From positions 16,463 to 80,462 of the forward strand of contig CAMVRE010000001.1 of NCBI GenBank assembly GCA_947169825.1: 64,000 nt of DNA, read 5' to 3'. The notes beneath the pieces were generated by a model. It had not been told where the DNA came from, did not search any database, and worked only from the letters and a program-made list of their open reading frames with translations. Below are positions 5,592-28,685 of this stretch, piece by piece. The stretch comes from an uncultured Verrucomicrobiota bacterium (GTDB lineage: Bacteria > Verrucomicrobiota > Kiritimatiellia > RFP12 > UBA3636). Position numbers and translations under genes: made by a program. The stretch's first letter is position 1, and each line of letters opens with the position of its first letter.

Positions 5592-7163
5592 TCAGTTTAC
5601 CGCGGGACCGGGCTCAGTCGCGCGGGCGTTCCGCATCGTCACCGCGAGGGGAATCATGTTGTTTCCGACCGGGAAATAGCCAAACATGAATTCCTTTTTC
5701 GGGATATCGGAGCAGGTTCGGTAGTGGGCGTCGACGGCGTCGGAAACTTCGCAGACGGGGTTCGAAAGATCGAGATCCTGCGTCCGCGGATCGTAGAGGA
5801 AGACGGCCTTCGCCCAATAGACGGAATTTCCCGACGCGTCCTTCTTGCGCCCGTGCCACGTGATGGCCAGATCGTCGTAACCGTCATTGTTCAGATCGAC
5901 CGTTTCGATGCCGATTCCCCTTCTCAGGCCCCTGTCCAGATCGTCGTAGACGAAGATCTGCTGAACGCGGAACGGCGCGTCCTCCAGGGAATCGGCCCAC
6001 CGGAGGTGGACTTCGTAGCAGTAGCGCCATCTCGACTTCACGTTCTTGTTCTCCGTCACGATGCGCCACAGCTCGACGTCGAGCTCGCGCCCGTTCAACC
6101 GGACGGTCGCATCAAGCCGGAGGGAGTTGAGGGGGGCGAGCCGGTGGCGGAGATAATACCCGAGGGCGCTCAAAGCGACTAGCCCGGAGACGATCGCGAA
6201 AATGAGACAACGCCAATAGTTTTCCGCTTCAGGGGTTCTTGCGGGGCCGATGATGACCACAATCAGAAGGAGAAGAACCAAAATTATGCCGACTTCTTCA
6301 AAATGGCGCGACCACCGATGGACACGCCGCCCGTCGATGCGAAACAGGAGATTGGTCGCGACCTTGGAGAAATCCGGTTTGTTCTTTTCCCTTTCGGAAT
6401 AGTACGCACCGACGTCTTTCCATTCTTTCCGGGCGGTGTCGGGTTTGCGCGGGTCACGGTGGAAAAGCAGTTCCTTCTGGGTTTCGCGCAGGATCCCGAT
6501 TTCGTATCCGAGCACCTTTTTCCTTTCGCGGATGACAACCGACGAGACGGGAATCAGCTCGTTCATCGGTCCGATATGGGAGACGAGGATGGCGAGAACG
6601 GGGCCCTTGAGCCGAACGCTGTGGCAGAGATGGAAGGAAACGTGGGTCCGGAGCCTATCGAGGGCTTCTTTTCCAAGTTCGTAACGTTGCGCGTCCGAAA
6701 CCTCGAACGCGAGCCGTTCTTCGTCTTTGGTGCCCAACAACTCTTTTTGGACGTAGGCGCAGAAATCCCGGTCTTCGCGTTTCGGATCTTCTTCGCAAAA
6801 CGTCTTGTAGCCGATATCGACGAGATAGAGCTCCTTTTTTTTCTTGTCCTCGCCGACGCCGAGCAGGATGCACCCGCCCCAGGCGTTGGCCATGGAAACC
6901 ATCGCCTCGACCACGTTCCACTTGCACGCATCGCCCGTCGAGTTGTCCCCCTGCTTGGGAAGATAGTGCGCCTTGAACTCGAGGAAGTTCGTTTCCCGGG
7001 TTCCGTTCTCACGGGAGCCGGAAAGCCCCCGAAGCAGCTTGTCGACGTCAGGTACCGGAGGAGGGTCGACGCCCAGGACGGAGCTGGACAGGGAGCCAAA
7101 ATCATCGCACTTGGCGATTGTCTTTCGGGAGAAAAGGCGAAGGAGTAGCTGTTTCATGGCCAT
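5592..7163 (-). CDS. Schlafen-type AlbA_2 domain protein with central TM helices and a C-terminal FG-GAP/VCBS-like segment
   Basis: AlbA_2 signature NFLEFKAHY...ANAWGGCILLGVGEDKK. Hydrophobic stretches IILVLLLLIVVIIG and LIFAIVSGLVALSALGYY. DLNNDGYDDLAITWHG near the C-terminus. GC and codon use are markedly lower than the neighbours. The listed 1130-aa ORF is cut at MAMKQLL because the remainder is antisense to the 7362-8465 gene. Confidence 0.7.
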   Translation of the reverse strand: MAMKQLLLRLFSRKTIAKCDDFGSLSSSVLGVDPPPVPDVDKLLRGLSGSRENGTRETNFLEFKAHYLPKQGDNSTGDACKWNVVEAMVSMANAWGGCILLGVGEDKKKKELYLVDIGYKTFCEEDPKREDRDFCAYVQKELLGTKDEERLAFEVSDAQRYELGKEALDRLRTHVSFHLCHSVRLKGPVLAILVSHIGPMNELIPVSSVVIRERKKVLGYEIGILRETQKELLFHRDPRKPDTARKEWKDVGAYYSEREKNKPDFSKVATNLLFRIDGRRVHRWSRHFEEVGIILVLLLLIVVIIGPARTPEAENYWRCLIFAIVSGLVALSALGYYLRHRLAPLNSLRLDATVRLNGRELDVELWRIVTENKNVKSRWRYCYEVHLRWADSLEDAPFRVQQIFVYDDLDRGLRRGIGIETVDLNNDGYDDLAITWHGRKKDASGNSVYWAKAVFLYDPRTQDLDLSNPVCEVSDAVDAHYRTCSDIPKKEFMFGYFPVGNNMIPLAVTMRNARATEPGPAVN

Positions 7164-7361
7164 TCGTTGGTTGCGTAAACACGCGATACATTCTATCAAA
7201 TTGTCCTGCCGCGAGCAAGCGAGCGCGCTTGCCATAGTATTGGTGTTCGTGCGACTGCAATCGTTCCATGCCAGTTCTCCTGTGGAAAGGGATTGGAGTC
7301 GCCGCTTATGGATGGTGAACGACCGAACGTTCACGAACGACGACATCAAAGGACCAGAGAC

Positions 7362-8465
7362 ATGACCGACAACAACACCAAGAAGACCAACGCCATGGAA
7401 CACAACCCCGTCCATACCGCCATGAAGAACGTGTCCCCGAAGATTCTGCTGCCCATCCTCGTGTCCGTTTTCGCGCTCTGCGCGCTCCCGTTCCTGACGG
7501 GCGCGTCCACCGCGGACGCGTCGGCGGAACCGACGCTTTCGCCCCTCGACGACCTCAGCCGGGAAACCGGGCGCGACGCGGACGCGACGGAAGTCCGAAC
7601 GAAGCAGGCGGACGCCTACCGCGCCCAGGGGGAGTACGACCTGTGCTACCGGATCTACCGGGGATGCGTCGAGAGCGGGCGGATCGACGGCCGCGCGTTC
7701 TACAAGGTCCTGCGCGGCGACGCGAAGGACCTTGCTGCGGCACATCCCGAAAAGAGGATGACGGTGCTCGTCGAAGACGGGAAGAAGAAGCCGGAGGAGT
7801 GGCAGGTTGCCCGGATGCGTCCCGAAGACAAGGCCTTGATTTGGAAAAAGAAGGGCGTGACGCCGAAGAAGGATTGGTTGACGGAAAAGGAACGGACGGC
7901 CCTCGTGGAGGCCGGCACCGCGAAGGGACTCGAGTTCCTGGACGGAAAACCGTCCCTCACGTTGGAGAAATGCCGCCGGATCCTCGCGTGCTACGACCTG
8001 CTGCGCGACCACGTCCAGAATCTGCTCGACGGAACGGAAGAGCGTCTGGTCCGCGAAGCGCCCGGCGACGAAGCGCTCGAATCCCTGCGCCGCGACCTGC
8101 TGGCCCTCAAGAAGGAAATCCGGGTCGCGCGCACGCGGTTCGTCTCCTACACGCTCGTGAGCCCGTTCCTCGCGGAGACGGTCCGGCTGCGCAGGATCGC
8201 CAAGGACAGCTTCCTCCAGATGCTGTTCAACCACCGGGCGAACGCGGGGAAGCGGCTGGACGCCATCTCGATGCTCGCGTTGGCGTGCCACAACGAGATT
8301 CTCATGAGCTGCACGGAGGACGTCCGCATCCAGTTCTGCGACGTCGTGTCCGGCCTGAAGCGGATCTCGCGTCCTGCGGAATGGGAGCACTTCAAGACCG
8401 TGACGACGATGCTCGACAGCTACGACCCCTCGAAGAAGCGCGGGGCCGACGCCTGGTGGGAGTAG
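7362..8465 (+). CDS. Hypothetical secreted/membrane-anchored protein
   Basis: Internal signal-like MKNVSPKILLPILVSVFALCALPFLTGASTADA. The start could be 7362, 7395 or 7422. No known domain. Confidence 0.5.
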   Translation: MTDNNTKKTNAMEHNPVHTAMKNVSPKILLPILVSVFALCALPFLTGASTADASAEPTLSPLDDLSRETGRDADATEVRTKQADAYRAQGEYDLCYRIYRGCVESGRIDGRAFYKVLRGDAKDLAAAHPEKRMTVLVEDGKKKPEEWQVARMRPEDKALIWKKKGVTPKKDWLTEKERTALVEAGTAKGLEFLDGKPSLTLEKCRRILACYDLLRDHVQNLLDGTEERLVREAPGDEALESLRRDLLALKKEIRVARTRFVSYTLVSPFLAETVRLRRIAKDSFLQMLFNHRANAGKRLDAISMLALACHNEILMSCTEDVRIQFCDVVSGLKRISRPAEWEHFKTVTTMLDSYDPSKKRGADAWWE

Positions 8466-8489
8466 CAGGAAGGAAAGGAGAGACAGACG

Positions 8490-9839
8490 ATGAAGAACAA
8501 CGCCATTCGTCCGTTCCGCCTTGCGGCGGCGATCCTTCTTGCGGCGATCGCGCCCGCCGCGATGGCCCATCCTTCGGCCGCGGAACACGCCCGGGATCTG
8601 CGGGCGGTCTTCGCGGGGCTGGAGGAGGGGCCCTTCCGCGAGATCTTCGAAACGGTGAGCGCCGACGTCGACAACGCGCTGGCCAGATCGTTCGAGGCGG
8701 AGATCGGACCGATTCCGGGCGGGCCCGGCAACCATCGCATCCTCGGTCATTCGTGGGCGCTCGGAGATCGCATCCCGAAGGACAAGCTCCGTCTGCTGGA
8801 AAGCGCCCATCCGGGCCGGCGGGCGGACATCGTCCGCTGGTGGAACCGGTTCTCCGAGGCGGAGATCTCGAAGATCGCGGAAAAGACGGGGCTCGCCAGA
8901 CCGCAGGCGAAGGCGCTCGGAAACATCATCTGGCGAATCCATCTGTTCGGCGACCGGACGGTCGACAACCGGGCGGTTGACCACGTCATCCCGACCCGCG
9001 AAAACGCGGAACGGCTGATCCGGGACCTGAACGACCTGTTCCGCCGATCCTGCCCCGACGCCCTGGGCAAGGCCGTGCAGACGATTCGGGACGCGATGCG
9101 TTCCGGGTCAACGGAGGCGGCCCGGGCGACGGCCGCACTCGACGCCTGCGCGAAGGCCCGAATCCCGACCATGCTGGAACAGGGATACGGCAGGCAGCTC
9201 GCCTCGAAGGGCATCGGACGTTCCGCGCAGGCGGCAGCCGCGCTTCCCCGGACGGCCGTCGCCGGCTCCGTTCCGTCCTCCGCCGCGAAACTGATGGCGA
9301 AGGGGAAAGCCTTCGCCGCCAATTCCCCGGAAGGCGCCAAGGCGTGGTCCGCGGCCAAGGAGGGCTTCCGGTCGAAGGGAACCGTACAGGTGCGGCCGGG
9401 ACTCCTGGCGCCGTCCGGACGGCTGCTTACGTCCGTGAAGTCCGGCGCCGCCGCGGGCGCGCTCGTGTTCGCCGCGGACGCCGGCATGGCCTGCTACCGG
9501 TTCTGGCAGGGGGACATCCTCGACGCCGAGTTTGCGGACGGCATCGCGGACGCGGCCCTGAAGGGGGCTGTCGTCGGCGCGGCCGTCGGCGTCGCGGTCC
9601 TGCTGGGCGCGACGCCCCAGGGCTGGGTCGTTCTCGCCGTGGCCACCGCGACGTACATCGTCGTCGACGTCGGAATCCGGATCTGGCGGGAGATCGACGA
9701 ACGGCGGTTCCTCTCCGCGGAAGACCTCGCCGCCTTCGGCATCCGGCCGGATGCGTTTCCGGAGCCGCGCGATACCATTCTTTCGCCGATGGACGACGGG
9801 TTTCTGGAGCCGCGGGACAGTACGCTCGTCTTACCGTGA
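8490..9839 (+). CDS. Hypothetical secreted protein with C-terminal hydrophobic region
   Basis: aggaaggaaaggag lies upstream. Signal peptide MKNNAIRPFRLAAAILLAAIAPAAMA. C-terminal GAVVGAAVGVAVLLGA...VVLAVATATYIVV. Confidence 0.6.
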   Translation: MKNNAIRPFRLAAAILLAAIAPAAMAHPSAAEHARDLRAVFAGLEEGPFREIFETVSADVDNALARSFEAEIGPIPGGPGNHRILGHSWALGDRIPKDKLRLLESAHPGRRADIVRWWNRFSEAEISKIAEKTGLARPQAKALGNIIWRIHLFGDRTVDNRAVDHVIPTRENAERLIRDLNDLFRRSCPDALGKAVQTIRDAMRSGSTEAARATAALDACAKARIPTMLEQGYGRQLASKGIGRSAQAAAALPRTAVAGSVPSSAAKLMAKGKAFAANSPEGAKAWSAAKEGFRSKGTVQVRPGLLAPSGRLLTSVKSGAAAGALVFAADAGMACYRFWQGDILDAEFADGIADAALKGAVVGAAVGVAVLLGATPQGWVVLAVATATYIVVDVGIRIWREIDERRFLSAEDLAAFGIRPDAFPEPRDTILSPMDDGFLEPRDSTLVLP

Positions 9840-9860
9840 CGGGGAGAAGCCGACAATGAC

Positions 9861-10148
9861 ATGAGGAAGCTTCTGGACCATCTCAAGGCGCACGAGGGCA
9901 CGGCGGATCCGTGGATCCTCGTCTGGGACAACCGCGGAACGTTTCCGCGGAAGGTTGGCGAACTCATACGCATCTGCAATCTTGCGACGGGCGCCTCGCA
10001 GCTCTTCGGCATCCCCGTCCGCACGTCGACCTACGTCGACTACCGCGGCGAGGTCGTCCTCGAAACCCGCGTCGAGCGCGCCGAGCTTCCGGAGCTCGTC
10101 GCCCGCCTCGAGTCCCGCCTCCGCCGCCCGCTCCGCCGCGTTTCGTGA
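9861..10148 (+). CDS. Small conserved protein (95 aa); partner gene of the AlbA_2 module, paralog of 14852-15142
   Basis: ggggagaag lies upstream. It is about 80% identical at both protein and DNA level to 14852-15142 (DPWILVWDNRxTFPRKVGxxIRICNLATGAS..FGIPVRTSTxVDYRGEVVLETRVERAELPEL). It ends 38 nt before the AlbA_2 gene. Confidence 0.65.
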   Translation: MRKLLDHLKAHEGTADPWILVWDNRGTFPRKVGELIRICNLATGASQLFGIPVRTSTYVDYRGEVVLETRVERAELPELVARLESRLRRPLRRVS

Positions 10149-10185
10149 TTTCCTTTCGGCTGCGGTTGTGGTATCATCCCGACCC

Positions 10186-12039
10186 ATGCCGACCGCGACA
10201 CGCAAGACCAGGCGCGTCTATCCCGTCAGCGGATACGATTTTGCACGGACCGTCCTCAACCAGAAGGGGGACGGAGCCGTGGAAACCCTGCTGGAAGTCG
10301 CGCACGGCGGGGAAACGGACTGGCTGGAGAAGAAGGCCGGCATCTATCCCTCCGTGGAACACGATCGGGCATTTCGGGCGAAGCTCGAGAAATGTCCCCC
10401 GGAGAAGATCGCCGAAGAGTCGAAATACTACGAGACGGAAATTCTCCGATCAATCGCCTGTTCGCTCGTTGCGCTTCACAATTCGCGCGGCGGCGTGCTG
10501 TTCATCGGCATCGACGACGCCAACGCCCCGGTTCCCTTCGAAACGTGCGATGCCGACGGTGTCCTGGCCACGAAGGGCCTCGAGGCGTACGTTCGGGAAT
10601 CGGTACTGGGAAGACTTCTTCCGAAAGGCGGACTCTTTTCCTGCAAGAAGGAAACCTGGGCGGTCCCCGCCGACCAGCTCGACATCGAGGCGAGAGTGTG
10701 TTCATATCGGGGGGCGAAGGTTCTTGCTCTTCTCGTTCCCCCCTTGGAACCGGGATGTCCCCCCTCACTCGTCACGCGGACGGAAAACAACCGGCCCCGG
10801 AAACTGCTCCTGCAACGCAATCCCGGCGATGTCGGCGCCGTCCGAAGAACCGAAGCGGAATCCTCTTGGGACGACTCGGCCGCGGCCCTTGCCGACTTCC
10901 ACGCCTCCCGCGGACGGACGTTCGGTTCCAACACGGATCTATTCGGAAAACTCCGAGAAATCGGAATCGAGCCCCCGCCGCAAAAGACAAGGTTCTGGGC
11001 AACCGGGCGGCAACGCCGACACCTTCTATCCACAGCAGGCATATTGATAGGCCTCGCGTCCGTCATCGGCCTGACGGTCTTGGGCACCCTTCAGATTCGC
11101 GTCCAAGGCGCACTGACGCGCAAGGAAAAGATTGAAAAGCTGCTGCATGAAAAGGCCCTCGTCCTCTCCCGCACGGCCTTCGCGACCTCCCTTGGCGAAA
11201 CGATGGTCGAGAAGGTCGATCCCACGGTCGTGGACAAGGCCGTGAACGGATTCTGGAAGGATTCGACGCTTTACACCGAGGCGCTTGTCGACATCGCCTT
11301 TGCCCTTCAGGCGCCTGAGGGAACCGATCTCGTCGGCGAAGCCGAGAAGATCCTTCAGGTTCGTCTGGGGGCCGGACTGGAAGCCGCCATCCGCGAGGAG
11401 GCGCGCCGCGTTTGCCGCTACCGCATTGCATTCACCCAGGACGCCATTGAAACCTTCGATCTGTCGGGCAAGGAAGACTCCGGTGCGCGCGAGATGCTCG
11501 CCGTGATTTTGGTCGATGCCGTCCACAACGAAGACTTCAACCGCTGCTGTCTCGACATGGAGGCGGCGCGCTTCCTTGTGGACGAGACGCTGGGGAAGGG
11601 ATCCGCGGGCGGACGGAAGACGCTCCGCATGAACGCGGAAGACGTCCGCGAATACCGCCGCCGGTGCCGCGCGGTTCAGAAAGCCGTTGTCGAAGAGCGC
11701 ATGAACGTGGCCGTGATCCTGACCATTCGCGGGGCGTATGCCGACATTGGCGCCCCGGACTTCGCCGACCGTTTGACCGAAGCGATCTCGCGCGCCACCG
11801 ACATTCCGCGCGACGAGTTCGGAGAACACTTTGCCAAGTTGCTTGACGAGGGCCGTCTTCTGCTTTCCACGAATCTTGCTCAGAGATACGCGCAGATGCT
11901 AAAAGTCCGTGGAGAGTCTGGTCAGATCGATTGGCCGCTTTCCGAGGAAACCGTCGATCTCGTCGTCGAAACCATTGCGCATCGGACCGGCATCGGCGAG
12001 GGGCAGATCCGACTGGCCTTCGACAATGCCTGCCGCTAG
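10186..12039 (+). CDS. AlbA_2 (Schlafen-like) N-terminal domain protein with TM segment and helical C-terminal domain
   Basis: SGYDFARTV...GGETDWLEKKAG...ALHNSRGGVLFIGIDD. A TM segment at LLSTAGILIGLASVIGLTVLGTL. The first ~300 aa are homologous to 15180-19067; the rest is different. Confidence 0.75.
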   Translation: MPTATRKTRRVYPVSGYDFARTVLNQKGDGAVETLLEVAHGGETDWLEKKAGIYPSVEHDRAFRAKLEKCPPEKIAEESKYYETEILRSIACSLVALHNSRGGVLFIGIDDANAPVPFETCDADGVLATKGLEAYVRESVLGRLLPKGGLFSCKKETWAVPADQLDIEARVCSYRGAKVLALLVPPLEPGCPPSLVTRTENNRPRKLLLQRNPGDVGAVRRTEAESSWDDSAAALADFHASRGRTFGSNTDLFGKLREIGIEPPPQKTRFWATGRQRRHLLSTAGILIGLASVIGLTVLGTLQIRVQGALTRKEKIEKLLHEKALVLSRTAFATSLGETMVEKVDPTVVDKAVNGFWKDSTLYTEALVDIAFALQAPEGTDLVGEAEKILQVRLGAGLEAAIREEARRVCRYRIAFTQDAIETFDLSGKEDSGAREMLAVILVDAVHNEDFNRCCLDMEAARFLVDETLGKGSAGGRKTLRMNAEDVREYRRRCRAVQKAVVEERMNVAVILTIRGAYADIGAPDFADRLTEAISRATDIPRDEFGEHFAKLLDEGRLLLSTNLAQRYAQMLKVRGESGQIDWPLSEETVDLVVETIAHRTGIGEGQIRLAFDNACR

Positions 12040-12111
12040 AGCGGTTCTATATCGGACTTGGCGACAGAATTCGTTTGATGGCGAAAGGGGGGTGTGATAG
12101 TATTTATCCCC

Positions 12112-13476
12112 ATGAGAAGCAACCCAATTTCTGGCTACGATCTTGCCAAGTCGATCTTCCGCGAATGCGGAGGCAAGAATGTCGATGCTCTGGTCGATTT
12201 CGCCGGCGGCGAGACGGACTGGCTCGAGTTCAAGGCCGGTCTTTTCGCCCGCCCGGAGGACCTAAAGGACGGAGAACGCCAGGAGGACGCGCTCTGGCAC
12301 GTCGCCCGGGCGGTGTTCGGATTTCTCAATTCGTCTGGCGGCTTGATCATCCTGGGAATCGACGACAAGCGAAAGCCCGCCGATCTGAGGAAGTCCAAAG
12401 GAGGCGAGACGTTGGCCGACGAAGGCATGGAGGCATATTTGAGGAAAGTCGTGGAGCCCAACCTGCCCCCGAGCAAGAAAAAATGGGAAACCGGGCGCGC
12501 CGGCCGTCTTGCATGGGAAGGCCGGGAACGGACTCTCGTCAAGGACGCCATTGGCATTGAGCCGGCCAAATTCCGTGGAAAGGATATCATTCTCCTTTTC
12601 GTGGCTCCTCTCGCCAAGGGGCGGATGGAAATCGTCCGGGAAGGCGATTCGCAAGTTCTTCTGGTCCGACAGCCCGGCCATGTCGCGAAAGTCGAATCCA
12701 TTAAAGACGTCCAAGACATGGTTTCTTGGACAACCCGCCGCCGCAGGGTCGAAAGACGCGAGTTTGCGGAAACACTGGAACAGTTCAAGACAGAGAAAAA
12801 GGAAGATATCCGTGCGAAAGGTGTCGACGCGTTTTCCAAGCCGGGCAAACGGCCAGCCGTCACGAAGAAAGCCAAACCCGCGCCCGGCGTCTTGTTTCCC
12901 TGTCCGGAGTGCGGCTCATATGTTTCCGGCAACGGGAAAAACGGGAACCAGCGTTGCACCAAATGCGGCGAGACGTTCCATTGCGGCGTCTACGAGGAGA
13001 ACTTCGTCCCCCAGCCGGACGACGAGTCCAGCGGATGGGCGGTTGCGAAATGGCTGCTGCTCTCGTTCGGGCACCGGGTGTCCGATTCCGATCTGCGGCG
13101 ACAATTGAAAGTCGAGAAAACGCTTTTCAACGGCGTGACGGGCGATGATTTCGAGGACGTCCTTGATCGTTGCAAATTGGATGTCGAGACGATTACCCTA
13201 TCCAAGAAGGATTTGAACATCGGAGCCTCCGACCTTTGCGAAGCGTTCTCCAACGACGGGCTCGTCGCCGTGGAATACGCGACGGACCGGGCCCCCTTCC
13301 CCGAAACACGTGGCGCAACGAGATGGATCGGACTGGAACGAACGAACAAAGGCGTCGTTCGTGTCATGGATCCCTGGTTTGCCTTCGGATATTTGGAGTT
13401 CCGGGCTTGGAAGAAGGCCGCATTTGACGATGTCAGGGCCATCGTGAAAGCCTTCTCTGTTTTTGAAAAGGAATAG
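12112..13476 (+). CDS. AlbA_2 domain protein fused to Zn-ribbon and a degenerate papain-like (C39-like) domain
   Basis: SGYDLAKSI...GGETDWLEFKAG...FLNSSGGLIILGIDD. Zn-ribbon CPECGSYV...RCTKCGETFHC. The C-terminal GWAVAKWLL...WIGLERTNKGVVRVMDP is homologous to 30879-31574, but the catalytic Cys is replaced by Ser and the His by Arg. Confidence 0.75.
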   Translation: MRSNPISGYDLAKSIFRECGGKNVDALVDFAGGETDWLEFKAGLFARPEDLKDGERQEDALWHVARAVFGFLNSSGGLIILGIDDKRKPADLRKSKGGETLADEGMEAYLRKVVEPNLPPSKKKWETGRAGRLAWEGRERTLVKDAIGIEPAKFRGKDIILLFVAPLAKGRMEIVREGDSQVLLVRQPGHVAKVESIKDVQDMVSWTTRRRRVERREFAETLEQFKTEKKEDIRAKGVDAFSKPGKRPAVTKKAKPAPGVLFPCPECGSYVSGNGKNGNQRCTKCGETFHCGVYEENFVPQPDDESSGWAVAKWLLLSFGHRVSDSDLRRQLKVEKTLFNGVTGDDFEDVLDRCKLDVETITLSKKDLNIGASDLCEAFSNDGLVAVEYATDRAPFPETRGATRWIGLERTNKGVVRVMDPWFAFGYLEFRAWKKAAFDDVRAIVKAFSVFEKE

Positions 13477-13490
13477 ATCCATTCGGATCC

Positions 13491-13730
13491 GTGTTCAAAC
13501 GGTTCCAAAAAGAAAACATGGATTCGAAAACTCCCAAGTCGCAGTCCTCGGTGCCCAAAAAGAAGCCTAAATCGCCGCAGTGGCTGATGGGCATCATCTT
13601 TTTTCTTGGGCCATTTCGTGTTCGATTGGTTGCTGCTATGATCGTTCTGGTCAATCGGGCCCGTCGTGCGGCGATTGGGGCAAAATTGGAAAAACGGAAG
13701 CAATCAAGGCTCAAGAAACGAGTCGAATGA
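13491..13730 (+). CDS. Small basic hydrophobic protein, hypothetical (79 aa)
   Basis: Lies in a low-GC patch between two island genes. Contains WLMGIIFFLGPFRVRLVAAMIVLV. No domain. Confidence 0.3.
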   Translation: MFKRFQKENMDSKTPKSQSSVPKKKPKSPQWLMGIIFFLGPFRVRLVAAMIVLVNRARRAAIGAKLEKRKQSRLKKRVE

Positions 13731-13871
13731 GTCGCGAGGATCAAATCTGACTTGAGAAAAGGGCGGAAGAAACCGAACGAAAAGGCCAGGAAGATTCCGC
13801 TTGTCGGGGATGTCTCAAGATTTGTGGATACAGGGTGTTCCGTATGGGAAGCAGGGGGAGACAAGGTCCGT

Positions 13872-14741
13872 TCACGCGGCCTTGTATCGTCGTTCATAGG
13901 CCCGTCGGTCGAACGCAACCGACGGGAACACCTTCCCGAACGAATGGTCGAGCAGGGACGGCGTCTCGCGGTAGCGGCCGCCGGTGTTGTCCAACAGCCG
14001 ACCCATCGGGTTGACGACGATGTAGGCGTTAACGATGTCCGCCGTGTTCTCCACGACGGGGCGGCAGTCCGCGTGGCGCGCCGCAAAAGCCTCGAATTCC
14101 GCGCCGGAGACGAGCAGATCGTCCGCGTGGTCGTTCGTCCCTTCGATCCGGATCATCCGCAGCAGCTTCCACCGATCGGGACGGACTGCCGCCACCAAGG
14201 CGTGGAAGTCCTGGCGGCAGTTCACCCGGTTGACCACGGTGTTGATCTTCAGCCGGATTCCCGCGGCGTGGATCGCGCGCGCCAGCTCCCCTAGCCGCGA
14301 CATGGACAGGCTCTGGCCGGCGCCGTTGACACGCCCCAGCCGGCAGTTGTCCTCGTGGCGGAAGGCGTCGACGCTGATGCCGATCATGGACAGCTTGTTC
14401 CGGTTGGCGTCGATCCACGACGGCGTGAGCAGGCTGCCGTTCGTGATGACGGAGACGGGAATGCCCAATCCGTGGATGTGGTCGATCAGCCCTTGGGCGA
14501 ACGGCGCCGCCAGAGGCTCTCCTCCCGCCAGATTGAACCGGCGCACGTCCACGTCGCGAGTGATGTTGGAGACGATTCGCTTCCATTCTTCCAGCCCCAG
14601 CGGCGTCCTGCCGAAACGCGAATGGCAGAACCGGCACCGGTAGTTGCAGATGTCGGTGTAGTGGAGATTGACGACCAGGTCCTGGTATTCCTTCATGGCA
14701 CGGGTTCCTTGTTCGGGTTGGATGGCTTCCACATTTGGCAT
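13872..14741 (-). CDS. Prokaryotic viperin-like radical SAM enzyme (pVip)
   Basis: VVNLHYTDICNYRCRFCH carries the CxxxCxxC cluster. GGEPL and SVITNGSLL align with eukaryotic viperin (NYHFTRQCNYKCGFCFH...SGGEPF...VSNGSLI). GGAGGA lies 7 nt upstream of ATG 14741. Confidence 0.85.
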   Translation of the reverse strand: MPNVEAIQPEQGTRAMKEYQDLVVNLHYTDICNYRCRFCHSRFGRTPLGLEEWKRIVSNITRDVDVRRFNLAGGEPLAAPFAQGLIDHIHGLGIPVSVITNGSLLTPSWIDANRNKLSMIGISVDAFRHEDNCRLGRVNGAGQSLSMSRLGELARAIHAAGIRLKINTVVNRVNCRQDFHALVAAVRPDRWKLLRMIRIEGTNDHADDLLVSGAEFEAFAARHADCRPVVENTADIVNAYIVVNPMGRLLDNTGGRYRETPSLLDHSFGKVFPSVAFDRRAYERRYKAA

Positions 14742-14851
14742 AAGGGATTCCTCCGCCGGTTTTCCGATTTTGCGGTTTTACCGGTTTGCGATGGAAATGA
14801 CCGGAATCCGCCGCTTATGGGTGGTGTCGGCGGAATCCGTCAAAACGAGAC

Positions 14852-15142
14852 ATGCACAAACTCCTAGAACACCTCAAAGCGCATCTTTCGACGGCCGATC
14901 CGTGGATTCTCGTCTGGGACAATCGCGAGACGTTTCCGCGGAAGGTCGGGGACCGTATCCGCATCTGTAATCTGGCGACGGGCGCGTCGCTGTTCTTCGG
15001 CATCCCCGTTAGGACTTCGACCTGGGTCGACTACCGCGGCGAGGTCGTTCTCGAAACCCGTGTCGAGCGGGCCGAACTACCGGAACTGCTCGCGCGCCTC
15101 GAGGCGCGACTCCGACATTCGCCGGGCCGCCGCGTTTCATGA
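14852..15142 (+). CDS. Small conserved protein (96 aa); partner gene, paralog of 9861-10148
   Basis: See 9861-10148. The 3' flanking sequence tgatttcctttcggc is also duplicated. Confidence 0.65.
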   Translation: MHKLLEHLKAHLSTADPWILVWDNRETFPRKVGDRIRICNLATGASLFFGIPVRTSTWVDYRGEVVLETRVERAELPELLARLEARLRHSPGRRVS

Positions 15143-15179
15143 TTTCCTTTCGGCCGTCCTTCTGGTAGAATTCATCTCC

Positions 15180-18100
15180 ATGCAAGCCACTTCCACCGCA
15201 CGGTCTCCTCTGGTTCCCGTCAACGGATACGATTTTGCCCGATCGGTTCTCGACCAGGAACCGGATCGTGGCGTCGAGATACTTCTTCAGGCGGCAGGCG
15301 AAAACGAATCGGACTGGCTCGAAAAGAAAGCCGCGGTCTACCGGTCGGAAAGCAAGGACGAACGCTTCCGGAAAGCGTTGGAAAACTGCCCCCCCGAACA
15401 GAGGAAACGCAGGAAAGATCTCCTGAATCTCGAATTGCTCGCTGAAATCGCCAAGGCCATCGTCGCCATCCACAACTCCCGAGGTGGCGTTTTGTTCGTC
15501 GGCATCGACGACCAAACCAATGAACCCGTTTCCTTCGAAAACAACGACGGCGGAGAAATCTGGAGGACGAACGGAAAGGGCGACTATGCCCTCAAGGCGG
15601 TTTGGGGCCGGCTTGCCCGGGAGAACGGAGAGTTTCGTTTCGACCACGAGACATTGATCGTTCCGGTGGAAGCCGTCGGCGTGGTTCCAAAATGGTGTCG
15701 CTACAAGAACGCGGATGTCCTCGCCCTGCTCATCCCCCCGCTCGCACCCGAAAAGAATCCGCTTGAAGTCACGCACGTCGAAAACAATTCTCCGTGGAGA
15801 TCCATTCCGAAGAGAGCACCAGGAGATGTCGGTCAAGTCAAGAAGGAAATGCGAAACGATGCGTGGATCGGTTCCGCCGCACAATTGGCCGATTTCCACC
15901 ACGCCCGCCAAGAACGTTTTCTAAATCAAACCGATCTTGCTTCCAAACTCAAGATACTTGGTCTTTCCGTTCCCAGCTCCTTTGTTTCCCAAATTCCGAA
16001 GCCCCGGCAGGAAATCACCTCGACCGTCGACCGTCCGCGCGCAGCCAACTTCGTCGGACGCGAAAAGGAACTCGAAGAGTTGCACGAACTGCTCGCGGAC
16101 GGACGAATCCCCGTCGTGACCGGTCCAGGTGGGACGGGCAAGTCCGAGTTGGTCCTCCAGTACGCCGCACGGAACAAGGCCGACTACCCCGGAGGTTTGT
16201 TCCAGATTGACATGGAAGACGTCACCGATTGGAATCAGACCTTCCTATCAATGCTGGAGAAGCCCGGCGTTCGGGATGTTCTCGGACTTCCGGTGAACAA
16301 CGAAGCCGAGATAGAATGTGAAGCCGAAAAGGAACCAAGTGTCAATAGTGCGGAATTGGCAGCCGACGGAACTGGCATGCCATGCGACAATTGCTTGAGA
16401 GAGAGCATCGCCGGAGACAAGAAATCCGTTCCAGCGGCCTTGTCCGCCCGGGTCGGCAGGGCAGGTCCCATTTTGATGATCCTTGACAACGTCGATCCTC
16501 CAGCCTGCAAAACGCTTTTCAAGGAAACCGTCCTCTCCAAACTGGGTCTTCCGTCCGACGTGAAAATCGTCGCCACGGCACGGGCGTCAGATCTTACCTT
16601 TCCGGCCAGCGGCGTCTGCAAGGAATTCCGACTTTCCGACTTGTTGCCGGATGTAGCCGTCCGGTTTTTGCTGGCAAATCACCCGGAGGCTTCCGAAGAC
16701 GAACGGAAGGCGGCGGAAAACATCGCCCGGATGCTTGATTATCGCATCCTCTATCTGAAGGCCGTTCCCTCGCTGTTGGAGGATGACGATTCCGATTTTG
16801 CCGGGTCGTGGAGGGCACTCGAAGCGGGCCTGCGCGACAATCTCGCGGATGTCGTCGCCGCGGGAATGGAAGACGACAGGGGCCGGACGCCGTCCGCCCT
16901 TTGGCAACTGACGCAAAAGGCTTTTGCCGCCAATCGTCCAAAAGGAGACAGGTGGATTCTCCTGGCGCGGATCGCCTCGTTCTTTTCTCCTGACCTCGGC
17001 ATCCGGAAAGCCGCGCTTTCCGCATTGTGGAAAAGCATCTCGGCGCCAGATGGCGATCTGGACATCGCCTTTGATCAGGCGATCAACAAACTTCTCAAGC
17101 ATGGTATCCTCGAGGACCGAGACGGCGAATACTATATGCATCGTCTCACATGCGCGGCCATTCGAGCCGCTTCAAGAGAGGAAGCGCCGAACATCGAGGA
17201 ATCTGTCGGTTTGTCATTGGCGGGAACTGGTCGCTCGGAGAGTCGGGACTGGGTATCGCTCTCCGGCAGTATTCCGGCCCTGCGCCATGTCCCGGAGGCT
17301 CTGCTCGACGGAAAGACGTGCGTTGACATCCTGTGCGGCAACCGTCAATTCGCCGACCTTTGCCCGTGGACAAAACTCGACTATTCTGATTGGAGGAAAC
17401 TTCTTGCCTTTCATCCACAGTTTATCGATCAATTGCAACAATCCGCTGATAATGGCAGCGCTGGTGCACAAATCGCTCTTGGGATTTGTTACTATTACGG
17501 TCGCGGCGTGAACCAGAATTACGAAGAAGCCGTAAAATGGTTCCGCAAGGCTGCCGAGCAGGAAAACGCTGCTGCGTATTCGAATCTCGGCGTATGCTAC
17601 GAAAAGGGCCGCGGCGTGGAACGGAACGCCGAAGAGGCCGCGAAATGGTACCGCAAAGCCGCCAATCAGGAAAACGCTACTGCGCAGACCAATCTCGGCA
17701 ATTGCTACTACAACGGTTGCGGCGTGGAACAGAGTTCTGAGGAAGCCGTGAAGTGGTACCTCAAGGCCGCCGAGAAGGGAAACGCTGATGCGCAGTTCAA
17801 TCTCGGCGTATGCTATGGCAATGGCCACGGCGTGAAGCAGAACGCCGAGGAAGCTGTGAGGTGGTTCCGCCAGGCCGCCAATCAGGAAAACGCTACTGCG
17901 CAGTTCAATCTCGGTTGCTGCTACTACCACGGTCGTGGTGTGGAACAGAACTACGAAGAAGCCGTGAGGTGGTGGCGCAGGGCCGCCGATCAAGGAAAGG
18001 GTGCAGCGCAATTTAATCTTGGCGTGTGCTATGGCAAGGGCCACGGCGTGGATCGGAGCGCCGAGGAAGCCGTGAAGTGGTACCGTAAGGCTGCCGAGCA

Positions 18101-19067
18101 GGAAGACGCCGCTGCGCAGGCTAGGCTCGGCTTGTGCTACGAGGAGGGCGAAGGCGTGGAACGGAACGCCGAGGAAGCCGTAAAATGGTACCGCAAGGCC
18201 GCCGAGCAGGGCAACGCTTCTGCACAGACAAAACTCGGTTATTGCAAGAATGACGGCCGTGGCATAGAACGAAGCGTCGAAGATGCGGTGAAGTGGTGGC
18301 AAAAAGCGGCAGAACGGGGGTACGCCCCGGCTCAATGGGAACTCGGTAGTTGCTTTGCCCTCGGAAAAGGTGTCGCGCGGAATGAGGAAGAGGCCGTAAA
18401 CTGGTGGCGTAAGGCGGCGGACCAAGGAAACCCCTGGAGACAAATCCGTTTGGGCCGGGTTCTTTTGTTCGGGAACGGCGTTGAAAAGAACGAGGCGGAG
18501 GCGTTCCGTTGGTTCCAGCGCGCGGCGGAACAAAAAGACGATTATGCGTTCGCCTGGCTCGGCTACTGTTTCGCGTCAGGAACCGGGACGCCCAAGGATA
18601 CACAAAAATCTGAATCGCTCTTTTTGAAGATCAGTCAACCCGCTCTTGGATTCAACGAGATTGCATGGTGTTTGTTCAAAGCAGGACGGTTTTCGGATGC
18701 CTTGCCGTTCGCGGAAAGGGCAGTTGCCGCGTTGCGGACAATCGAAGACTTCCCGATGCAGAAACGAATTATAATCCTCGATACACTTGCTGCCATTTTT
18801 CACCATTTGAACCGGGAAGAGGAAACGAAAGACGTTTGCTCCGAAATCCTGTCTCTGTTCCCAGAAAACGACGATTCAAAACACCACGAGGAAGCTCTCG
18901 TCCGGCTCGGGCGGGCCTGTCAACGCCTTGGCGACAAATCTGGCGCGGTCGATGCGTTCCAGAAGGCACTAACCATTGTGGAACGGCATGACGGCAAGCA
19001 CGCCGAATACGGAGAGTCCGCAGATTCCTTGCGCGCGTTGCTGGCCGAATTGTCGGAACGCGGTTGA
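15180..19067 (+). CDS. AlbA_2 N-terminal domain fused to STAND (NB-ARC-like) NTPase and Sel1/TPR repeat array; Avs-like architecture
   Basis: NGYDFARSV...ESDWLEKKAA...AIHNSRGGVLFVGIDD. Walker A PVVTGPGGTGKSELV and Walker B ILMILDNVD. At least 12 Sel1-type repeats (AQxxLGxCYxxGxGVxxNxEEAVKWYRKAAEQ). C-terminal TPR-like segment. Confidence 0.85.
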   Translation: MQATSTARSPLVPVNGYDFARSVLDQEPDRGVEILLQAAGENESDWLEKKAAVYRSESKDERFRKALENCPPEQRKRRKDLLNLELLAEIAKAIVAIHNSRGGVLFVGIDDQTNEPVSFENNDGGEIWRTNGKGDYALKAVWGRLARENGEFRFDHETLIVPVEAVGVVPKWCRYKNADVLALLIPPLAPEKNPLEVTHVENNSPWRSIPKRAPGDVGQVKKEMRNDAWIGSAAQLADFHHARQERFLNQTDLASKLKILGLSVPSSFVSQIPKPRQEITSTVDRPRAANFVGREKELEELHELLADGRIPVVTGPGGTGKSELVLQYAARNKADYPGGLFQIDMEDVTDWNQTFLSMLEKPGVRDVLGLPVNNEAEIECEAEKEPSVNSAELAADGTGMPCDNCLRESIAGDKKSVPAALSARVGRAGPILMILDNVDPPACKTLFKETVLSKLGLPSDVKIVATARASDLTFPASGVCKEFRLSDLLPDVAVRFLLANHPEASEDERKAAENIARMLDYRILYLKAVPSLLEDDDSDFAGSWRALEAGLRDNLADVVAAGMEDDRGRTPSALWQLTQKAFAANRPKGDRWILLARIASFFSPDLGIRKAALSALWKSISAPDGDLDIAFDQAINKLLKHGILEDRDGEYYMHRLTCAAIRAASREEAPNIEESVGLSLAGTGRSESRDWVSLSGSIPALRHVPEALLDGKTCVDILCGNRQFADLCPWTKLDYSDWRKLLAFHPQFIDQLQQSADNGSAGAQIALGICYYYGRGVNQNYEEAVKWFRKAAEQENAAAYSNLGVCYEKGRGVERNAEEAAKWYRKAANQENATAQTNLGNCYYNGCGVEQSSEEAVKWYLKAAEKGNADAQFNLGVCYGNGHGVKQNAEEAVRWFRQAANQENATAQFNLGCCYYHGRGVEQNYEEAVRWWRRAADQGKGAAQFNLGVCYGKGHGVDRSAEEAVKWYRKAAEQEDAAAQARLGLCYEEGEGVERNAEEAVKWYRKAAEQGNASAQTKLGYCKNDGRGIERSVEDAVKWWQKAAERGYAPAQWELGSCFALGKGVARNEEEAVNWWRKAADQGNPWRQIRLGRVLLFGNGVEKNEAEAFRWFQRAAEQKDDYAFAWLGYCFASGTGTPKDTQKSESLFLKISQPALGFNEIAWCLFKAGRFSDALPFAERAVAALRTIEDFPMQKRIIILDTLAAIFHHLNREEETKDVCSEILSLFPENDDSKHHEEALVRLGRACQRLGDKSGAVDAFQKALTIVERHDGKHAEYGESADSLRALLAELSERG

Positions 19068-19328: not shown

Positions 19329-20561
19329 ATGCAGGCGGACGATCTTGAATCAGCACAGACCGTGCTGCAGGACAAAGTATTCCGGCGCGCAGGCGAACTC
19401 GGATACGACGCCGACAAGATTGAGCCGATCTATGACGGCGTGGCCGATGCAGTGGCATATCTTGACGCGAAGCCGCGGTTGATGTGGATCCTCAAGGAGC
19501 CCTACGACGACTGGGACGACGATGAAAGTCCCTGCGGCGGCGGATGGACGTTCTTCCGGGATGTCGCGAAGGGAAAGACCCTCGCGCAGGTCGCGAACGC
19601 GAACCCGGCCCTTCGCAACGTGGCGTACGCAAGCCGAGCCATTCTGGGCGGCATCGGTTCCTACGCAGAGCTGCCGTGGATTGTGGATGCGCCGGCGGAC
19701 TACGAGCGCTCGCTGCGGAGCATCGCGTTCGTAAACGTGGGCAAGATGCCGGCGGGTCGGACCACGAGCGAGGAACGCCTCGCCGCCTGTTATGCGCAAT
19801 GGAAGGACGTTCTCTTCGAGCAGATCGATCTCTATGATCCGGACATCCTCGTCTTCGGCAACACGCTGCAATGCTTCGAGCCGGACATGGGACTTGATCT
19901 TTCCAAGCCGGTCCGGACCGTGAAGAACGGAGGATCGACGGTGGATATCCACGTTTGGCGCGGCAAGCGCATCCTCTGGGCGCCGCATCCCGCCGCTCAC
20001 ATTCAACCCGAAGAATGGGTGGATTCCGTCATCGAGGCGGCACGGGGCCCGTTAATCCAGGCGGCGCGCTCGGCGAGCGCGCCCTACCGGGAGGAATCCG
20101 CCAGTCCGGTAGGGCGCGATGGCCCCATCGCGCCGGATTCCGAAATCGCGGTACGACCGTCGCAGAAAGTCGCACCGGAAGAAAAAAGCGGGCAGGCCCG
20201 GAAAACAGCGGCGGCTACCGCTTATACAAGGCAGAACAACCCCACGAACACACAACAAAACGAATCCAAAACCAGGAGCAGCACCATGTCCCAAGTCCAC
20301 GCCAATCCCGACGAAATCCGCGACTTCGCCGCCCGGCTCCAGGCCTGCGACGAGAACATCTCGGACGAACTTTCCGCCACGGCCGCCGCGTTCGCGGCGC
20401 TCGGCGACACCTGGAACGACGCCAAGCGCGCGGAGTTCGAGGAATCCTTCGAGGAGCTGAAGGACTGCATCGGCCGCTTCTCGGCCTCCTGCGCGGAGCA
20501 GGTTCCCCACCTGATCCGGCTCGCCGACCACCTCGACGAATTCAACGCCACCTTCTGCTGA
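19329..20561 (+). CDS. Hypothetical protein; N-terminal ~240-aa unknown domain and C-terminal 91-aa helical WXG100-like segment (possibly two genes, see findings)
   Basis: AAGGAA 7 nt upstream of ATG 19329. The ORF is continuous, but residues 241-319 are the translation of a GC-rich palindromic repeat. An A/C-rich canonical leader precedes internal ATG 20286 (MSQVHANPDEIRDFAARLQA...LGDTWNDAKRAEFEE...). Confidence 0.5.
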   Translation: MQADDLESAQTVLQDKVFRRAGELGYDADKIEPIYDGVADAVAYLDAKPRLMWILKEPYDDWDDDESPCGGGWTFFRDVAKGKTLAQVANANPALRNVAYASRAILGGIGSYAELPWIVDAPADYERSLRSIAFVNVGKMPAGRTTSEERLAACYAQWKDVLFEQIDLYDPDILVFGNTLQCFEPDMGLDLSKPVRTVKNGGSTVDIHVWRGKRILWAPHPAAHIQPEEWVDSVIEAARGPLIQAARSASAPYREESASPVGRDGPIAPDSEIAVRPSQKVAPEEKSGQARKTAAATAYTRQNNPTNTQQNESKTRSSTMSQVHANPDEIRDFAARLQACDENISDELSATAAAFAALGDTWNDAKRAEFEESFEELKDCIGRFSASCAEQVPHLIRLADHLDEFNATFC

Positions 20562-20566
20562 ACGAA

Positions 20567-21769
20567 ATGGAAACCGTCGCCTCCGTCGAAAACATGGAAG
20601 ATGTCTCGTCGGCCCTCTCCTCCGGGGTCGAGAACGCGGCGGAGTCCGTCCGCGAGACGGGCTCCTCGCTCGACGGCCTCTCGGAGGCGGCCGACGCCGC
20701 CCTCGCCGATGCGGAGCGCGCGGTCGAGGAGGCCCGGGCAGAAGTCGTCCGGCTCGAATCGCTGGTTTCGTCCCTCGAATCGCAAATCTCCTCCCAAGAC
20801 GACGGCGAGAAGGATTCCGGCGGAAACGATTCCGCCGCGGCCGAACTCGCGTCCGCGCAGGCGGATCTCGGAGAAGCGAAGGAAGAGCTTCGCAATTGCG
20901 AGGACCGTCGCGAGAAGGCGGCGGCGACGGCGCGCCGGGCGACGGCGCTGCGCGAACGCTTCCTGGACGCGAGCCGAGCTTCGCTGAAGCGGATGGAGGA
21001 TCTCGGAACCCTGTGCGCCTCCCGCGTCCGGCATGCCTGCGAGGCGCTGGAGAAGTACATCGCCGAACATCCCGGACACGCGGCGGCCGGATTCGCCGGA
21101 TGGATCCGGTGGACTCCGCCGGCGAACGCGCCCGTGACGCCCGATGCGCTCGCCGCCCGGATCAAGGGCGCGAATCTCCGGGAATCCATCGCCTACGAGG
21201 CGGAGCGCGATCCGCGGTTCCGGTCCAAGATCGAGGACTACGGACGCCGCTGGGAGTCCGCGGCCACGCTCTCGGAGAAGACGGCCGTCATCCGCCAGGC
21301 GCGCCGGAACGCCAGCGGCGAACTGGCGGAACGCGTCGTGACGGCGGCGTTCCGCCCGATCGGAGACGTCTCCACGCAGAACCGGACCGTCTTCGACGAC
21401 GGGCGCTACACGAAGACGGATCTCGTCGTCCGCAACCTGCGCGCGCCGGTGATCCTCGGGCGCGGCGACCGCGCCTTCGCCCCGAAAGGAGGGACGATCG
21501 CGTTCGAGGTCAAGGCGGGACAGGCGTCCTACCTGCGGTCGCAGGAGGACCATCTCGCGTTCCAGGCCGGCGGGCACCGGACGGCGAACGCCTCGGCGAC
21601 GATCTGCACGGCGGACATCCACGATCTGCCGGAAGCGGAGGAGCGCGAACTGAGGGACAGGCTCCGCGCCGCGGGTTCGCCGATCCTCGGCATGCTGCCG
21701 CGGAAGCGGGATATCGACCGGGCTCTCTACGAAGCCATCGTCTACGGAATCGGGAAGACCAGACCATGA
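20567..21769 (+). CDS. Coiled-coil N-terminal / putative PD-(D/E)xK nuclease C-terminal protein (polymorphic-toxin-like)
   Basis: Ala/Glu-rich helical N-terminus (AERAVEEARAEVVRLESLVSSLESQ). C-terminal YTKTDLVVRN...GGTIAFEVKAGQ fits the D...(D/E)xK restriction-endonuclease-fold motif. Translationally coupled to the upstream stop. Confidence 0.55.
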   Translation: METVASVENMEDVSSALSSGVENAAESVRETGSSLDGLSEAADAALADAERAVEEARAEVVRLESLVSSLESQISSQDDGEKDSGGNDSAAAELASAQADLGEAKEELRNCEDRREKAAATARRATALRERFLDASRASLKRMEDLGTLCASRVRHACEALEKYIAEHPGHAAAGFAGWIRWTPPANAPVTPDALAARIKGANLRESIAYEAERDPRFRSKIEDYGRRWESAATLSEKTAVIRQARRNASGELAERVVTAAFRPIGDVSTQNRTVFDDGRYTKTDLVVRNLRAPVILGRGDRAFAPKGGTIAFEVKAGQASYLRSQEDHLAFQAGGHRTANASATICTADIHDLPEAEERELRDRLRAAGSPILGMLPRKRDIDRALYEAIVYGIGKTRP

Positions 21770-21966
21770 ACGACAATCTCGCGACCTCCTTCAAGCGCGC
21801 TCTTGAACTCTTCCGGGAACAGACCCGCGGCGAGTTCGCGACGAATCTGATGGAGAAGGTCCTCGAACCAATGGCGAACGAACTGGACGCCCTGTCGTCC
21901 GAAATCGAAAGCGCGAACCGGGAACTCTCCGATCTCGAAACCGAACTCGAAGGAAACAACGAATGA
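21766..21966 (+). CDS. Small helical protein (66 aa), hypothetical
   Basis: ATG overlaps the upstream stop (ATGA). Coiled-coil ELDALSSEIESANRELSDLETELE. Ends 4 nt into the next start. Confidence 0.5.
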   Translation: MNDNLATSFKRALELFREQTRGEFATNLMEKVLEPMANELDALSSEIESANRELSDLETELEGNNE

Positions 21967-26562: not shown

Positions 26563-26620
26563 GACAGAAGGACGCATCAAACCAACCCGAATTCGAACAA
26601 CAACAAGAAGGAACAAAACC

Positions 26621-28663: not shown

Positions 28664-28685
28664 GCCGATGGAAGGAACGAAGAAA

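Follow-up and report, generated by a model that had tools for sequence, protein, structure and literature searches.

What does a small protein without recognisable relatives do in front of a bacterial Schlafen nuclease? This question is raised by a stretch of 64,000 nucleotides (nt) from an uncultured bacterium of the Verrucomicrobiota (Kiritimatiellia; GenBank assembly GCA_947169825.1, contig CAMVRE010000001.1, positions 16,463 to 80,462), here called the window, in which a gene for a protein of 95 or 96 amino acids (aa) twice lies directly 5' of a gene for a large protein with a Schlafen/AlbA_2 head. The window holds four such heads with a different arm on each. We consider it probable, with moderate confidence, that they represent a sensor-effector Schlafen family in which the arms are swapped and the 95-aa protein is a constant subunit gating the head. 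What is new here is limited to the small partner and the membrane-receptor-like versions, as the swapping of sensor arms on Schlafen heads was already described in 2025-26. The genes and spacers concerned are:

5592-7163, minus strand: Schlafen/AlbA_2 gene (523 aa) with a hydrophobic stretch and an FG-GAP/XAC2610-like C-terminal arm, without a small partner gene
9861-10148, plus strand: small1, the 95-aa partner, with 84% protein identity to small2
10149-10185, plus strand: spacer with the promoter-like element of the following Schlafen gene (extended -10 and TGATTTCCTTTCGGC)
10186-12039, plus strand: Schlafen head, transmembrane (TM) helix and mostly helical arm of ~320 aa, 617 aa in total (Pfam, head profile, AlphaFold2)
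12112-13476, plus strand: Schlafen head, zinc ribbon and papain-like domain, in tandem after 10186-12039 and without a small gene of its own
14852-15142, plus strand: small2, the 96-aa partner, recognised by its similarity to small1
15143-15179, plus strand: spacer with an extended -10 (motif search)
15180-19067, plus strand: Schlafen head, STAND NTPase, ten Sel1 repeats and C-terminal TPR repeats, 1295 aa in total (Pfam)

A first-pass annotation, made from the sequence alone, had described the two modules as paralogous, and both the open reading frames at these coordinates and their paralogy hold. The small proteins are clearly related (E=2e-57), and the 617-aa and 1295-aa proteins align with 47% identity over residues 13-265 (E=7e-66). 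Nothing aligns beyond this point. DNA homology between small1 and small2 begins at the ATG, with none upstream of it, and runs through the stop codon and TGATTTCCTTTCGGC into the spacer; similarity of the 3' flank had been noted correctly, while the identity is ~84-85% over the aligned stretch and not ~80%. The similarity of the modules is thus not confined to the AlbA_2 domain, the partner having been duplicated along with the head.

The small open reading frame is a true gene under purifying selection. The codons of small1 and small2 differ in 39 cases at third positions, but only in 8 at first and in 9 at second ones, which corresponds to a synonymous divergence (dS) of 0.73, a nonsynonymous divergence (dN) of 0.11 and a dN/dS of 0.15; among 21 pairs of relatives dN/dS ranged from 0.08 to 0.29. 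AlphaFold2 modelled the protein from 28 homologues with a predicted local distance difference test score (pLDDT) of 89.7 as a sheet of five strands and one short helix, framed by a helix at either terminus (topology a-b-(a)-b-b-b-b-a). Because of this selection and the confident model we counted the frame as a real gene. The first annotation had recognised no homology for the protein, and this still stands after searches of Pfam, PADLOC, PHROGs and NCBIfam, which gave no match, and after Foldseek searches of the PDB and BFVD with the predicted fold, which gave nothing at E<=0.001 (best 0.11 and 0.05). A marginal sequence-profile match in the PDB to IspD (E=0.0066) was judged to be due to chance. 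No tblastn match of the gene was found in phage and plasmid collections.

Relatives of the small protein were few. Among 5.8 billion protein clusters there were 32 close ones, all at least 73% identical, and a profile search widened the family to 69 clusters. Among 1.84 billion representative proteins the family comprised about eight clusters at 50% identity, repeat artefacts set aside; the large multi-stretch matches of that HMM search came from CUB-domain and RTX-like repeat proteins and were discarded. All members are free-standing and ~80-110 aa long, apart from a few fragments and one outlier of 140 aa, and where a source is named, it is a genome of Kiritimatiellae or 'Verrucomicrobia' that was assembled from a rumen or gut sample. 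The family is rare and confined to uncultured gut and rumen bacteria of the Planctomycetes-Verrucomicrobia-Chlamydiae (PVC) group.

Judged from profile and motif, the head of ~265 aa that follows the small protein belongs to the Schlafen/AlbA_2 nucleases, and its Ex4ExK motif is intact. Scores of the four window proteins with the Pfam domain SLFN_AlbA_2 (PF04326; cut-off 25.3 bits) were 22, 30.7, 26 and 23.5 bits, of which 30.7 belongs to 12112-13476 and 26 to 15180-19067; the match in 5592-7163 had E=8.4e-5. A profile of ten heads found Schlafens only when compared with the PDB, SLFN14 first (E=1.8e-7), then SLFN8/13, 11, 12 and 5. Three residues, E43, E48 and K50, are invariant in the ten aligned heads; this numbering applies to 10186-12039 and 15180-19067, and the corresponding residues of 12112-13476 are E34, E39 and K41. 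In the four window proteins the motif reads ETDWLEKK, ESDWLEKK, ETDWLEFK and ETNFLEFK (the last in 5592-7163). The catalytic Ex4(E/D)xK residues of CbCash were established experimentally as E17, D22 and K24 (Cash, Weickert et al. 2026, PMC13462974) and the motif is general in prokaryotic Schlafens (Perez Taboada et al. 2026, PMC13056530). Since the catalytic motif is intact in all four window proteins, the heads are predicted to be active RNases.

Other metagenomic and genomic loci were compared, which carry L-numbers here (L023-L033 are eleven loci from JGI metagenomes). Synteny of the small gene with AlbA_2 heads in other genomes, suggested as a check with the first annotation, was indeed found: besides the window, where it occurs twice, about 20 independent loci have the small gene immediately 5' of this head subtype, whatever the arm (L004/L005, L006, L007, L009, L010-L019, L022-L033 and L035). 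The heads of the TM type (window 10186, L004, L007 and the 619-aa gene of L022) form one group and those of the STAND type (window 15180, L006, L009 and the 1259-aa gene of L022) another. The adjacency holds also in a distant clade (L010-L019), in which the small proteins are only 35-45% identical and the small and Schlafen genes overlap or are 14-19 nt apart. Kinase-headed proteins with the same arm have no small gene upstream, and the small gene is therefore tied to the head and not to the arm. The pairing is not strictly one-to-one, as in L022, L023 and L011 a single small gene stands before two Schlafen genes in tandem. The second tandem Schlafen-like gene of L011 (9494-11056) has HWCDWLETYD in place of ExxxxExK, and this head is probably inactive.

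Two loci show the junction in an altered state. In L001 (9218-9414) a remnant of 34 codons with a TTG start, from which the central part of the small gene has been deleted, precedes an apparently intact Schlafen-STAND-Sel1 gene and its extended -10 is kept; the same metagenome-assembled genome has an intact small and Schlafen pair on another contig (L009). In L025 (3318-4417) ~1.05 kb have been inserted precisely where the stop codon of the small gene would otherwise meet the Schlafen promoter. The last bases of the small gene (CCGCGTTTCGTGA) are found as a direct repeat on the flanks of this insertion, which carries an apparent open reading frame on the opposite strand. In the distant clade and in L009, the pair stands at the end of a conserved operon for four proteins (143-159, 339-404, ~335 and 672-699 aa) and a tiny membrane peptide of 37-66 aa (for example L017, 1494-6135). 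The four proteins had no match in Pfam, PADLOC or the PDB. This operon was not found in the window by tblastn and is thus not part of the window locus; together with the pair of the distant clade it may form an undescribed larger system.

Could the adjacency be a matter of DNA rather than of protein function? In such an explanation, which we regard as very doubtful, the small protein would have no direct functional tie to the heads, and its gene would stay in place because the promoter region of the next gene lies in its 3' end, or because its conserved DNA offers a handle for recombination by which downstream cassettes are swapped. The stop codon of the small gene does overlap the -35 side of a promoter-like element, and the L025 insertion sits exactly at the junction with the repeated 3' end of the small gene on its flanks. 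An extended -10 of the form TGnTAnnAT starts 16-18 nt before the ATG in ten out of ten Schlafen genes of the Kiritimatiellae clade. In the window it reads TGGTATCAT at 10169-10177, 8 nt before the ATG of 10186-12039; TGATAGTAT at 12095, before 12112-13476; TGGTAGAAT at 15163-15171, before 15180-19067; and TGATAGAAT, starting at 7198 on the minus strand, before 5592-7163. The conserved stretch TGATTTCCTTTCGGC 3' of the small genes is best read as the -35 side of the downstream promoter. A consensus promoter scan of 9700-15400 returned nothing because there is no good -35 hexamer.

The same element, however, precedes Schlafen genes without a small gene in front, namely the second gene of L022 and the gene of L036, so that the promoter does not require the small gene. 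The distant clade keeps the adjacency without any such promoter, with overlapping genes or Shine-Dalgarno-type spacing (the spacer of L017 has a Shine-Dalgarno-like AGGAG), and the strong purifying selection on the small protein also speaks against a mere DNA function. The extended -10 was considered as a special feature of the Schlafen genes and this was dropped, since the same layout is found before unrelated genes of the window, for example at 48927 and 39847 on the minus strand. Out of 20 occurrences of TGnTAnnAT on both strands of the whole window, those at 10169, 12095, 15163 and 63127 (plus strand) and at 7198, 39847, 48927 and 4164 (minus strand) lie 7-9 nt before start codons. The element is presumably the organism's ordinary leaderless-type promoter, which suggests that leaderless transcripts are widespread in this organism. 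A programmed frameshift that would join the small gene to the head, whose frame is open upstream, was likewise set aside, as open frames are expected at this GC content and the promoter-like element lies in between.

Rates of evolution bear on the same explanation and on a further one. Small proteins of the Kiritimatiellae clade share 70-90% identity with one another, the heads next to them 42-70%. The two small genes of the window differ by a dS of 0.73 compared to 2.3 for the adjacent heads, and distances between small genes do not track head subtype or arm: small1 and the small gene of L006 have a dS of only 0.32 although their heads belong to different groups. A mirror-tree test of small protein against head within the clade found no correlation (rho 0.35, p 0.2). 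This lower divergence and the uncoupled tree of the small genes would agree with a gene that has no tie to the heads; the low divergence fits exchange between copies as well as tighter constraint on the sequence. The first-pass annotation had also offered the small protein as a possible specificity component, and here it has to be corrected. The small protein is the slowest-evolving part, its divergence is tied neither to head subtype nor to arm, one copy may precede two Schlafens (as in L022 and L023), and L001 retains only a remnant; for these reasons the partner is not a specificity factor, and by all sequence comparisons it appears as the constant element of the module.

Variation is found instead in the arms, and arm exchange is real at two depths, between the head groups and within the TM group. 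That one arm has a TM helix and a helical domain and the other a STAND NTPase with Sel1 repeats, and that the two are unrelated, had been proposed from the first and is borne out. The 617-aa protein has a single TM helix (aa 279-297) followed by the arm of ~320 aa, which AlphaFold2 modelled as mostly helical with pLDDT 75-92 over residues 340-617. Compared with its relative in L007 it is 62% identical through residue 317, TM helix included, and unrelated after that; the arms of L004 and L007 are 62% identical to each other. The arm of the window protein (aa 293-617; 11062-12039) is 87% identical to the C-terminal half of proteins of 612 aa (P0083-P0095; L020, L021), the N-terminal half of which is a Ser/Thr protein kinase head. 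One presumed sensor module may therefore drive two different catalytic heads, a kinase and a Schlafen. As the protein has only one membrane helix and no signal peptide, and by analogy with receptor kinases, the helical arm is probably outside the cytoplasm. Receptor-type Ser/Thr kinases have the same layout of cytoplasmic catalytic head, single TM helix and C-terminal domain across the membrane that is predicted here.

The 1295-aa protein combines its head with matches to AAA_16 (38.5 bits, cut-off 32.6), Sel1 (E=3.8e-117), TPR_12 and, weakly, nSTAND1; its Walker A motif is GPGGTGKS, and a full-length orthologue with 53% identity exists in L006. By domain content this is an Avs-like sensor-effector architecture. 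Avs9 proteins, AlbA_2-headed STAND proteins, kill cells through the AlbA_2 active site (PMC12680541), and the 1295-aa protein shares with them the N-terminal AlbA_2, the central P-loop STAND NTPase and the C-terminal helical repeats. Avs9 is built as AlbA_2-SIR2-NTPase-TPR-OB, whereas 15180-19067 has no SIR2 or OB domain detectable by Pfam, carries Sel1 repeats and has a small partner gene in front. Its predicted architecture is thus Avs-like without being Avs9 as defined in that paper.

The third AlbA_2 protein, 12112-13476, was already noted in the first annotation for having yet another arm, and this arm turned out to be a zinc ribbon with a papain-like domain that appears dead. It (aa 264-430; 12901-13401) is 33% identical (E=2e-17) to the protein encoded at 30531-31574, which keeps the motifs CGW and HWIG. 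Where these read SGW and RWIG in the arm, the putative catalytic Cys and His have been replaced by Ser and Arg, and we therefore read the arm as an inactivated peptidase, probably a dead enzyme reused as a binding module. The free-standing zinc ribbon and papain-like gene adjoins a Peptidase_Mx gene in the window and does so twice in L022. The fourth AlbA_2 gene, 5592-7163, was missing from the first annotation; its arm has weak matches to FG-GAP in Pfam and to XAC2610 in NCBIfam. Other arms, such as FGE-sulfatase, are found on relatives of this gene in L001 and L017.

The combination of a head that stays constant with arms that are swapped had been interpreted as the pattern of immunity genes. 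The pattern is there, but it is not novel and has been published (PMC13056530, PMC13462974, PMC12680541). Prokaryotic Schlafens (pSlfn) fused to dozens of sensor domains defend against phage by tRNA cleavage (PMC13056530, PMC13462974). The proteins described here share with the pSlfn nucleases the AlbA_2/Schlafen core, the Ex4(E/D)xK motif, diverse putative sensors and the location in defence islands, and tRNA cleavage would be expected of them too. The arms found here are STAND-Sel1, a TM helix with a helical domain, and a dead peptidase. The pSlfn papers deal with single-gene systems or CRISPR-coupled effectors, while here one head subtype comes with a dedicated 95-aa protein; no conserved small gene as a partner, and no form anchored in the membrane, is described in the accessible sections of PMC13056530, PMC13462974 and PMC12680541, and the words 'operon', 'two-gene' and 'transmembrane' do not occur in the text of PMC13056530.

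How could a constant small protein act on such heads? In the mechanism we propose, the N-terminal Schlafen head would be the RNase and the C-terminal arm an exchangeable sensor. A cue sensed by the arm would cause the heads to assemble, in analogy with characterised Schlafens, and the assembled heads would cut tRNA or other RNA and thereby stop translation in the infected cell. Our best guess for the 95-aa protein is that it would bind the invariant part of the head and hold the nuclease off until the arm signals. As the small copies appear interchangeable, one copy might serve several heads per cell. The small protein would presumably contact the head and may inhibit or activate it; an antitoxin-like or gating function is possible.

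The likeness to type II toxin-antitoxin systems lies in a small, co-oriented gene immediately 5' of a potentially toxic nuclease gene, tightly spaced or overlapping in the distant clade. What sets the pair apart is the slower evolution of the small protein, its lack of a recognisable DNA-binding fold, the absence of one-to-one pairing, and a promoter-like element that the nuclease gene has to itself. In the sequence comparisons the small partner fails the classical antitoxin tests of one-to-one pairing and faster evolution.

The small protein might alternatively be needed for the nuclease activity of the head, helping it to assemble or dimerise or serving as a tRNA adaptor, whatever the arm; we consider such a positive cofactor rather unlikely. 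Synteny and constancy would be the same as for a gating subunit, and high conservation would fit contact with a conserved cellular molecule such as tRNA. Both window copies are basic, with a net charge of about +5 and an Arg-rich tail, but the charge is not kept in distant members of the family (e.g. P0037). STAND sensors need no antitoxin, and Schlafen nucleases need oligomeric interfaces for activity (PMC13462974; a hexamer in PMC13056530); characterised prokaryotic Schlafens nevertheless work as single polypeptides, and the subtype includes Schlafen genes that have no small gene beside them.

Several observations weigh against a constant subunit that gates a Schlafen head. The Pfam scores for AlbA_2 are weak (22-31 bits, some under the gathering cut-off), and the AlphaFold2 model of the head was only moderate, with pLDDT 58-81 over residues 50-190. 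No adjacent intact small gene accompanies the second Schlafen gene of L022 or the gene behind the L001 remnant, and the Schlafen gene of L036 has no small gene within 1.1 kb upstream. Each Schlafen gene of the Kiritimatiellae clade has its own promoter-like element, and the pair need not be one transcript. Among the 1.84 billion representative proteins there was no natural fusion of small protein and head. STAND-type sensors are normally self-inhibited single-gene proteins that do not obviously need an inhibitor, and antitoxins usually evolve faster than their toxins, while the small protein is the slower partner.

A more far-reaching version, to which we give low credence, concerns the TM members. 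These might be receptor-like Schlafen RNases whose extracytoplasmic sensor, shared with kinase heads, would report phage attack at the level of the envelope to a cytoplasmic tRNase. The 95-aa protein of new fold would then be a universal gate or co-receptor of membrane and STAND members, and the whole a PVC-specific two-component module with IRE1-like logic. The comparison with eukaryotic IRE1 is one of function only; the two are not homologous, and the catalytic head of the window proteins is that of a Schlafen nuclease.

The modules are part of an island of ~28 kb, at ~5.6-34 kb of the window, that contains these further genes:

7293-9839, plus strand: two genes (390 and 449 aa) directly upstream of small1, function not recognised by family searches
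13872-14741, minus strand: prokaryotic viperin (pVip), divergent from small2 (PADLOC, NCBIfam)
19329-29792, plus strand: WXG100/EssC-like/TerY-P-like cassette (Pfam, gene order)
29811-31574, plus strand: Peptidase_Mx-like gene followed by the zinc ribbon and papain-like gene (30531-31574) (Pfam)

The island is bounded by housekeeping genes, an M16 peptidase on one side and HtrA, MetK and ExbBD on the other, and the GC content is 0.56-0.63 at ~5-20 kb of the window compared to 0.67-0.74 in the flanks of the island and 0.67-0.76 over the rest of the window, which fits horizontal acquisition. The pVip in the middle of the modules, already recognised in the first annotation, was confirmed by PADLOC (E=1.3e-72) and NCBIfam (NF038283, viperin_w_prok, 249 bits, cut-off 180), and a viperin is found at the matching position in L007 and L024. 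Adjoining pVip and TerY-P-like cassette, lowered GC content and housekeeping genes on both sides support the interpretation of the setting as a defence island, from which we infer a defence role of the locus. The two genes upstream of small1 had no confident family match in Pfam, PADLOC or NCBIfam, the only marginal one being hflK for the 449-aa protein (E=0.005). The C-terminal part of that protein is a Gly/Ala-rich hydrophobic region that resembles holins, with weak holin matches in PHROGs (E ~1e-3). The order of these two genes, small gene and Schlafen gene is kept in L027 with 75% identity.

The cassette downstream encodes, in this order, a WXG100 fusion (410 aa), a coiled-coil protein (400 aa), a 66-aa protein, an EssC-like FtsK/SpoIIIE ATPase, a vWA-NYN protein, a Ser/Thr kinase, a vWA protein and a PP2C phosphatase. 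Pfam found VWA twice, Pkinase (weak, 24.7 bits), PP2C_2, FtsK_SpoIIIE and WXG100. PADLOC models gave no TerY-P match in the cassette, and the putative TerY-P-like membership is assigned from domain content and gene order. The same order is repeated in L001, L004, L007 and L022. In the window the WXG100 domain is fused to an N-terminal region of ~320 aa; L022 and L036 have a free version of 91 aa. Bell et al. 2024 (PMC11090510) describe such a set, there attributed to Anantharaman et al. 2012, with the same WXG100, coiled-coil and small proteins, EssC-like ATPase with N-terminal coiled coil, two vWA proteins, Ser/Thr kinase and PP2C. Different from that description, no McrBC/CoCoNuT core was found in the annotated part of the window (to ~47.5 kb), and the recurrent flanking of the cassette by small and Schlafen modules is not mentioned in the accessible part of that paper.

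This neighbourhood could point to a polymorphic-toxin or secretion locus, with Schlafens exported through the WXG100/EssC-like machinery and the small protein as their chaperone, targeting partner or immunity protein. Small and Schlafen modules stand at either end of the cassette in the window, L001, L004/L022 and L007, and in L001 the WXG100 fusion gene has an intact small gene immediately 5' of it. Type VIIb secretion systems are known to have small partner genes upstream of LXG toxins. We nevertheless hold such a locus to be extremely improbable. Polymorphic toxins combine a constant N-terminal trafficking region with a variable C-terminal toxin, whereas in the present proteins it is the nuclease that stays constant. 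A STAND NTPase with Sel1/TPR repeats is a cytoplasmic sensor architecture, other members are membrane-anchored, and the predicted alpha/beta fold of the small protein is not a WXG-like helical hairpin. The pair also occurs without the cassette within 10 kb in L006, L009 and L010-L019, and EssC-like ATPases of this cassette type have no TM segments (PMC11090510).

For a family this rare, general importance would be limited unless its mechanism proves to be new. The island shows domain shuffling unusually clearly, with arms borrowed from free-standing neighbours and from kinase-headed proteins. Membrane-anchored Schlafens with an arm shared with kinases point to sensing at the cell envelope. To our knowledge, the restraint of Schlafen activity is understood for very few bacterial members, and the 95-aa protein, as a candidate trans-acting partner, may offer a handle on how these nucleases are gated.

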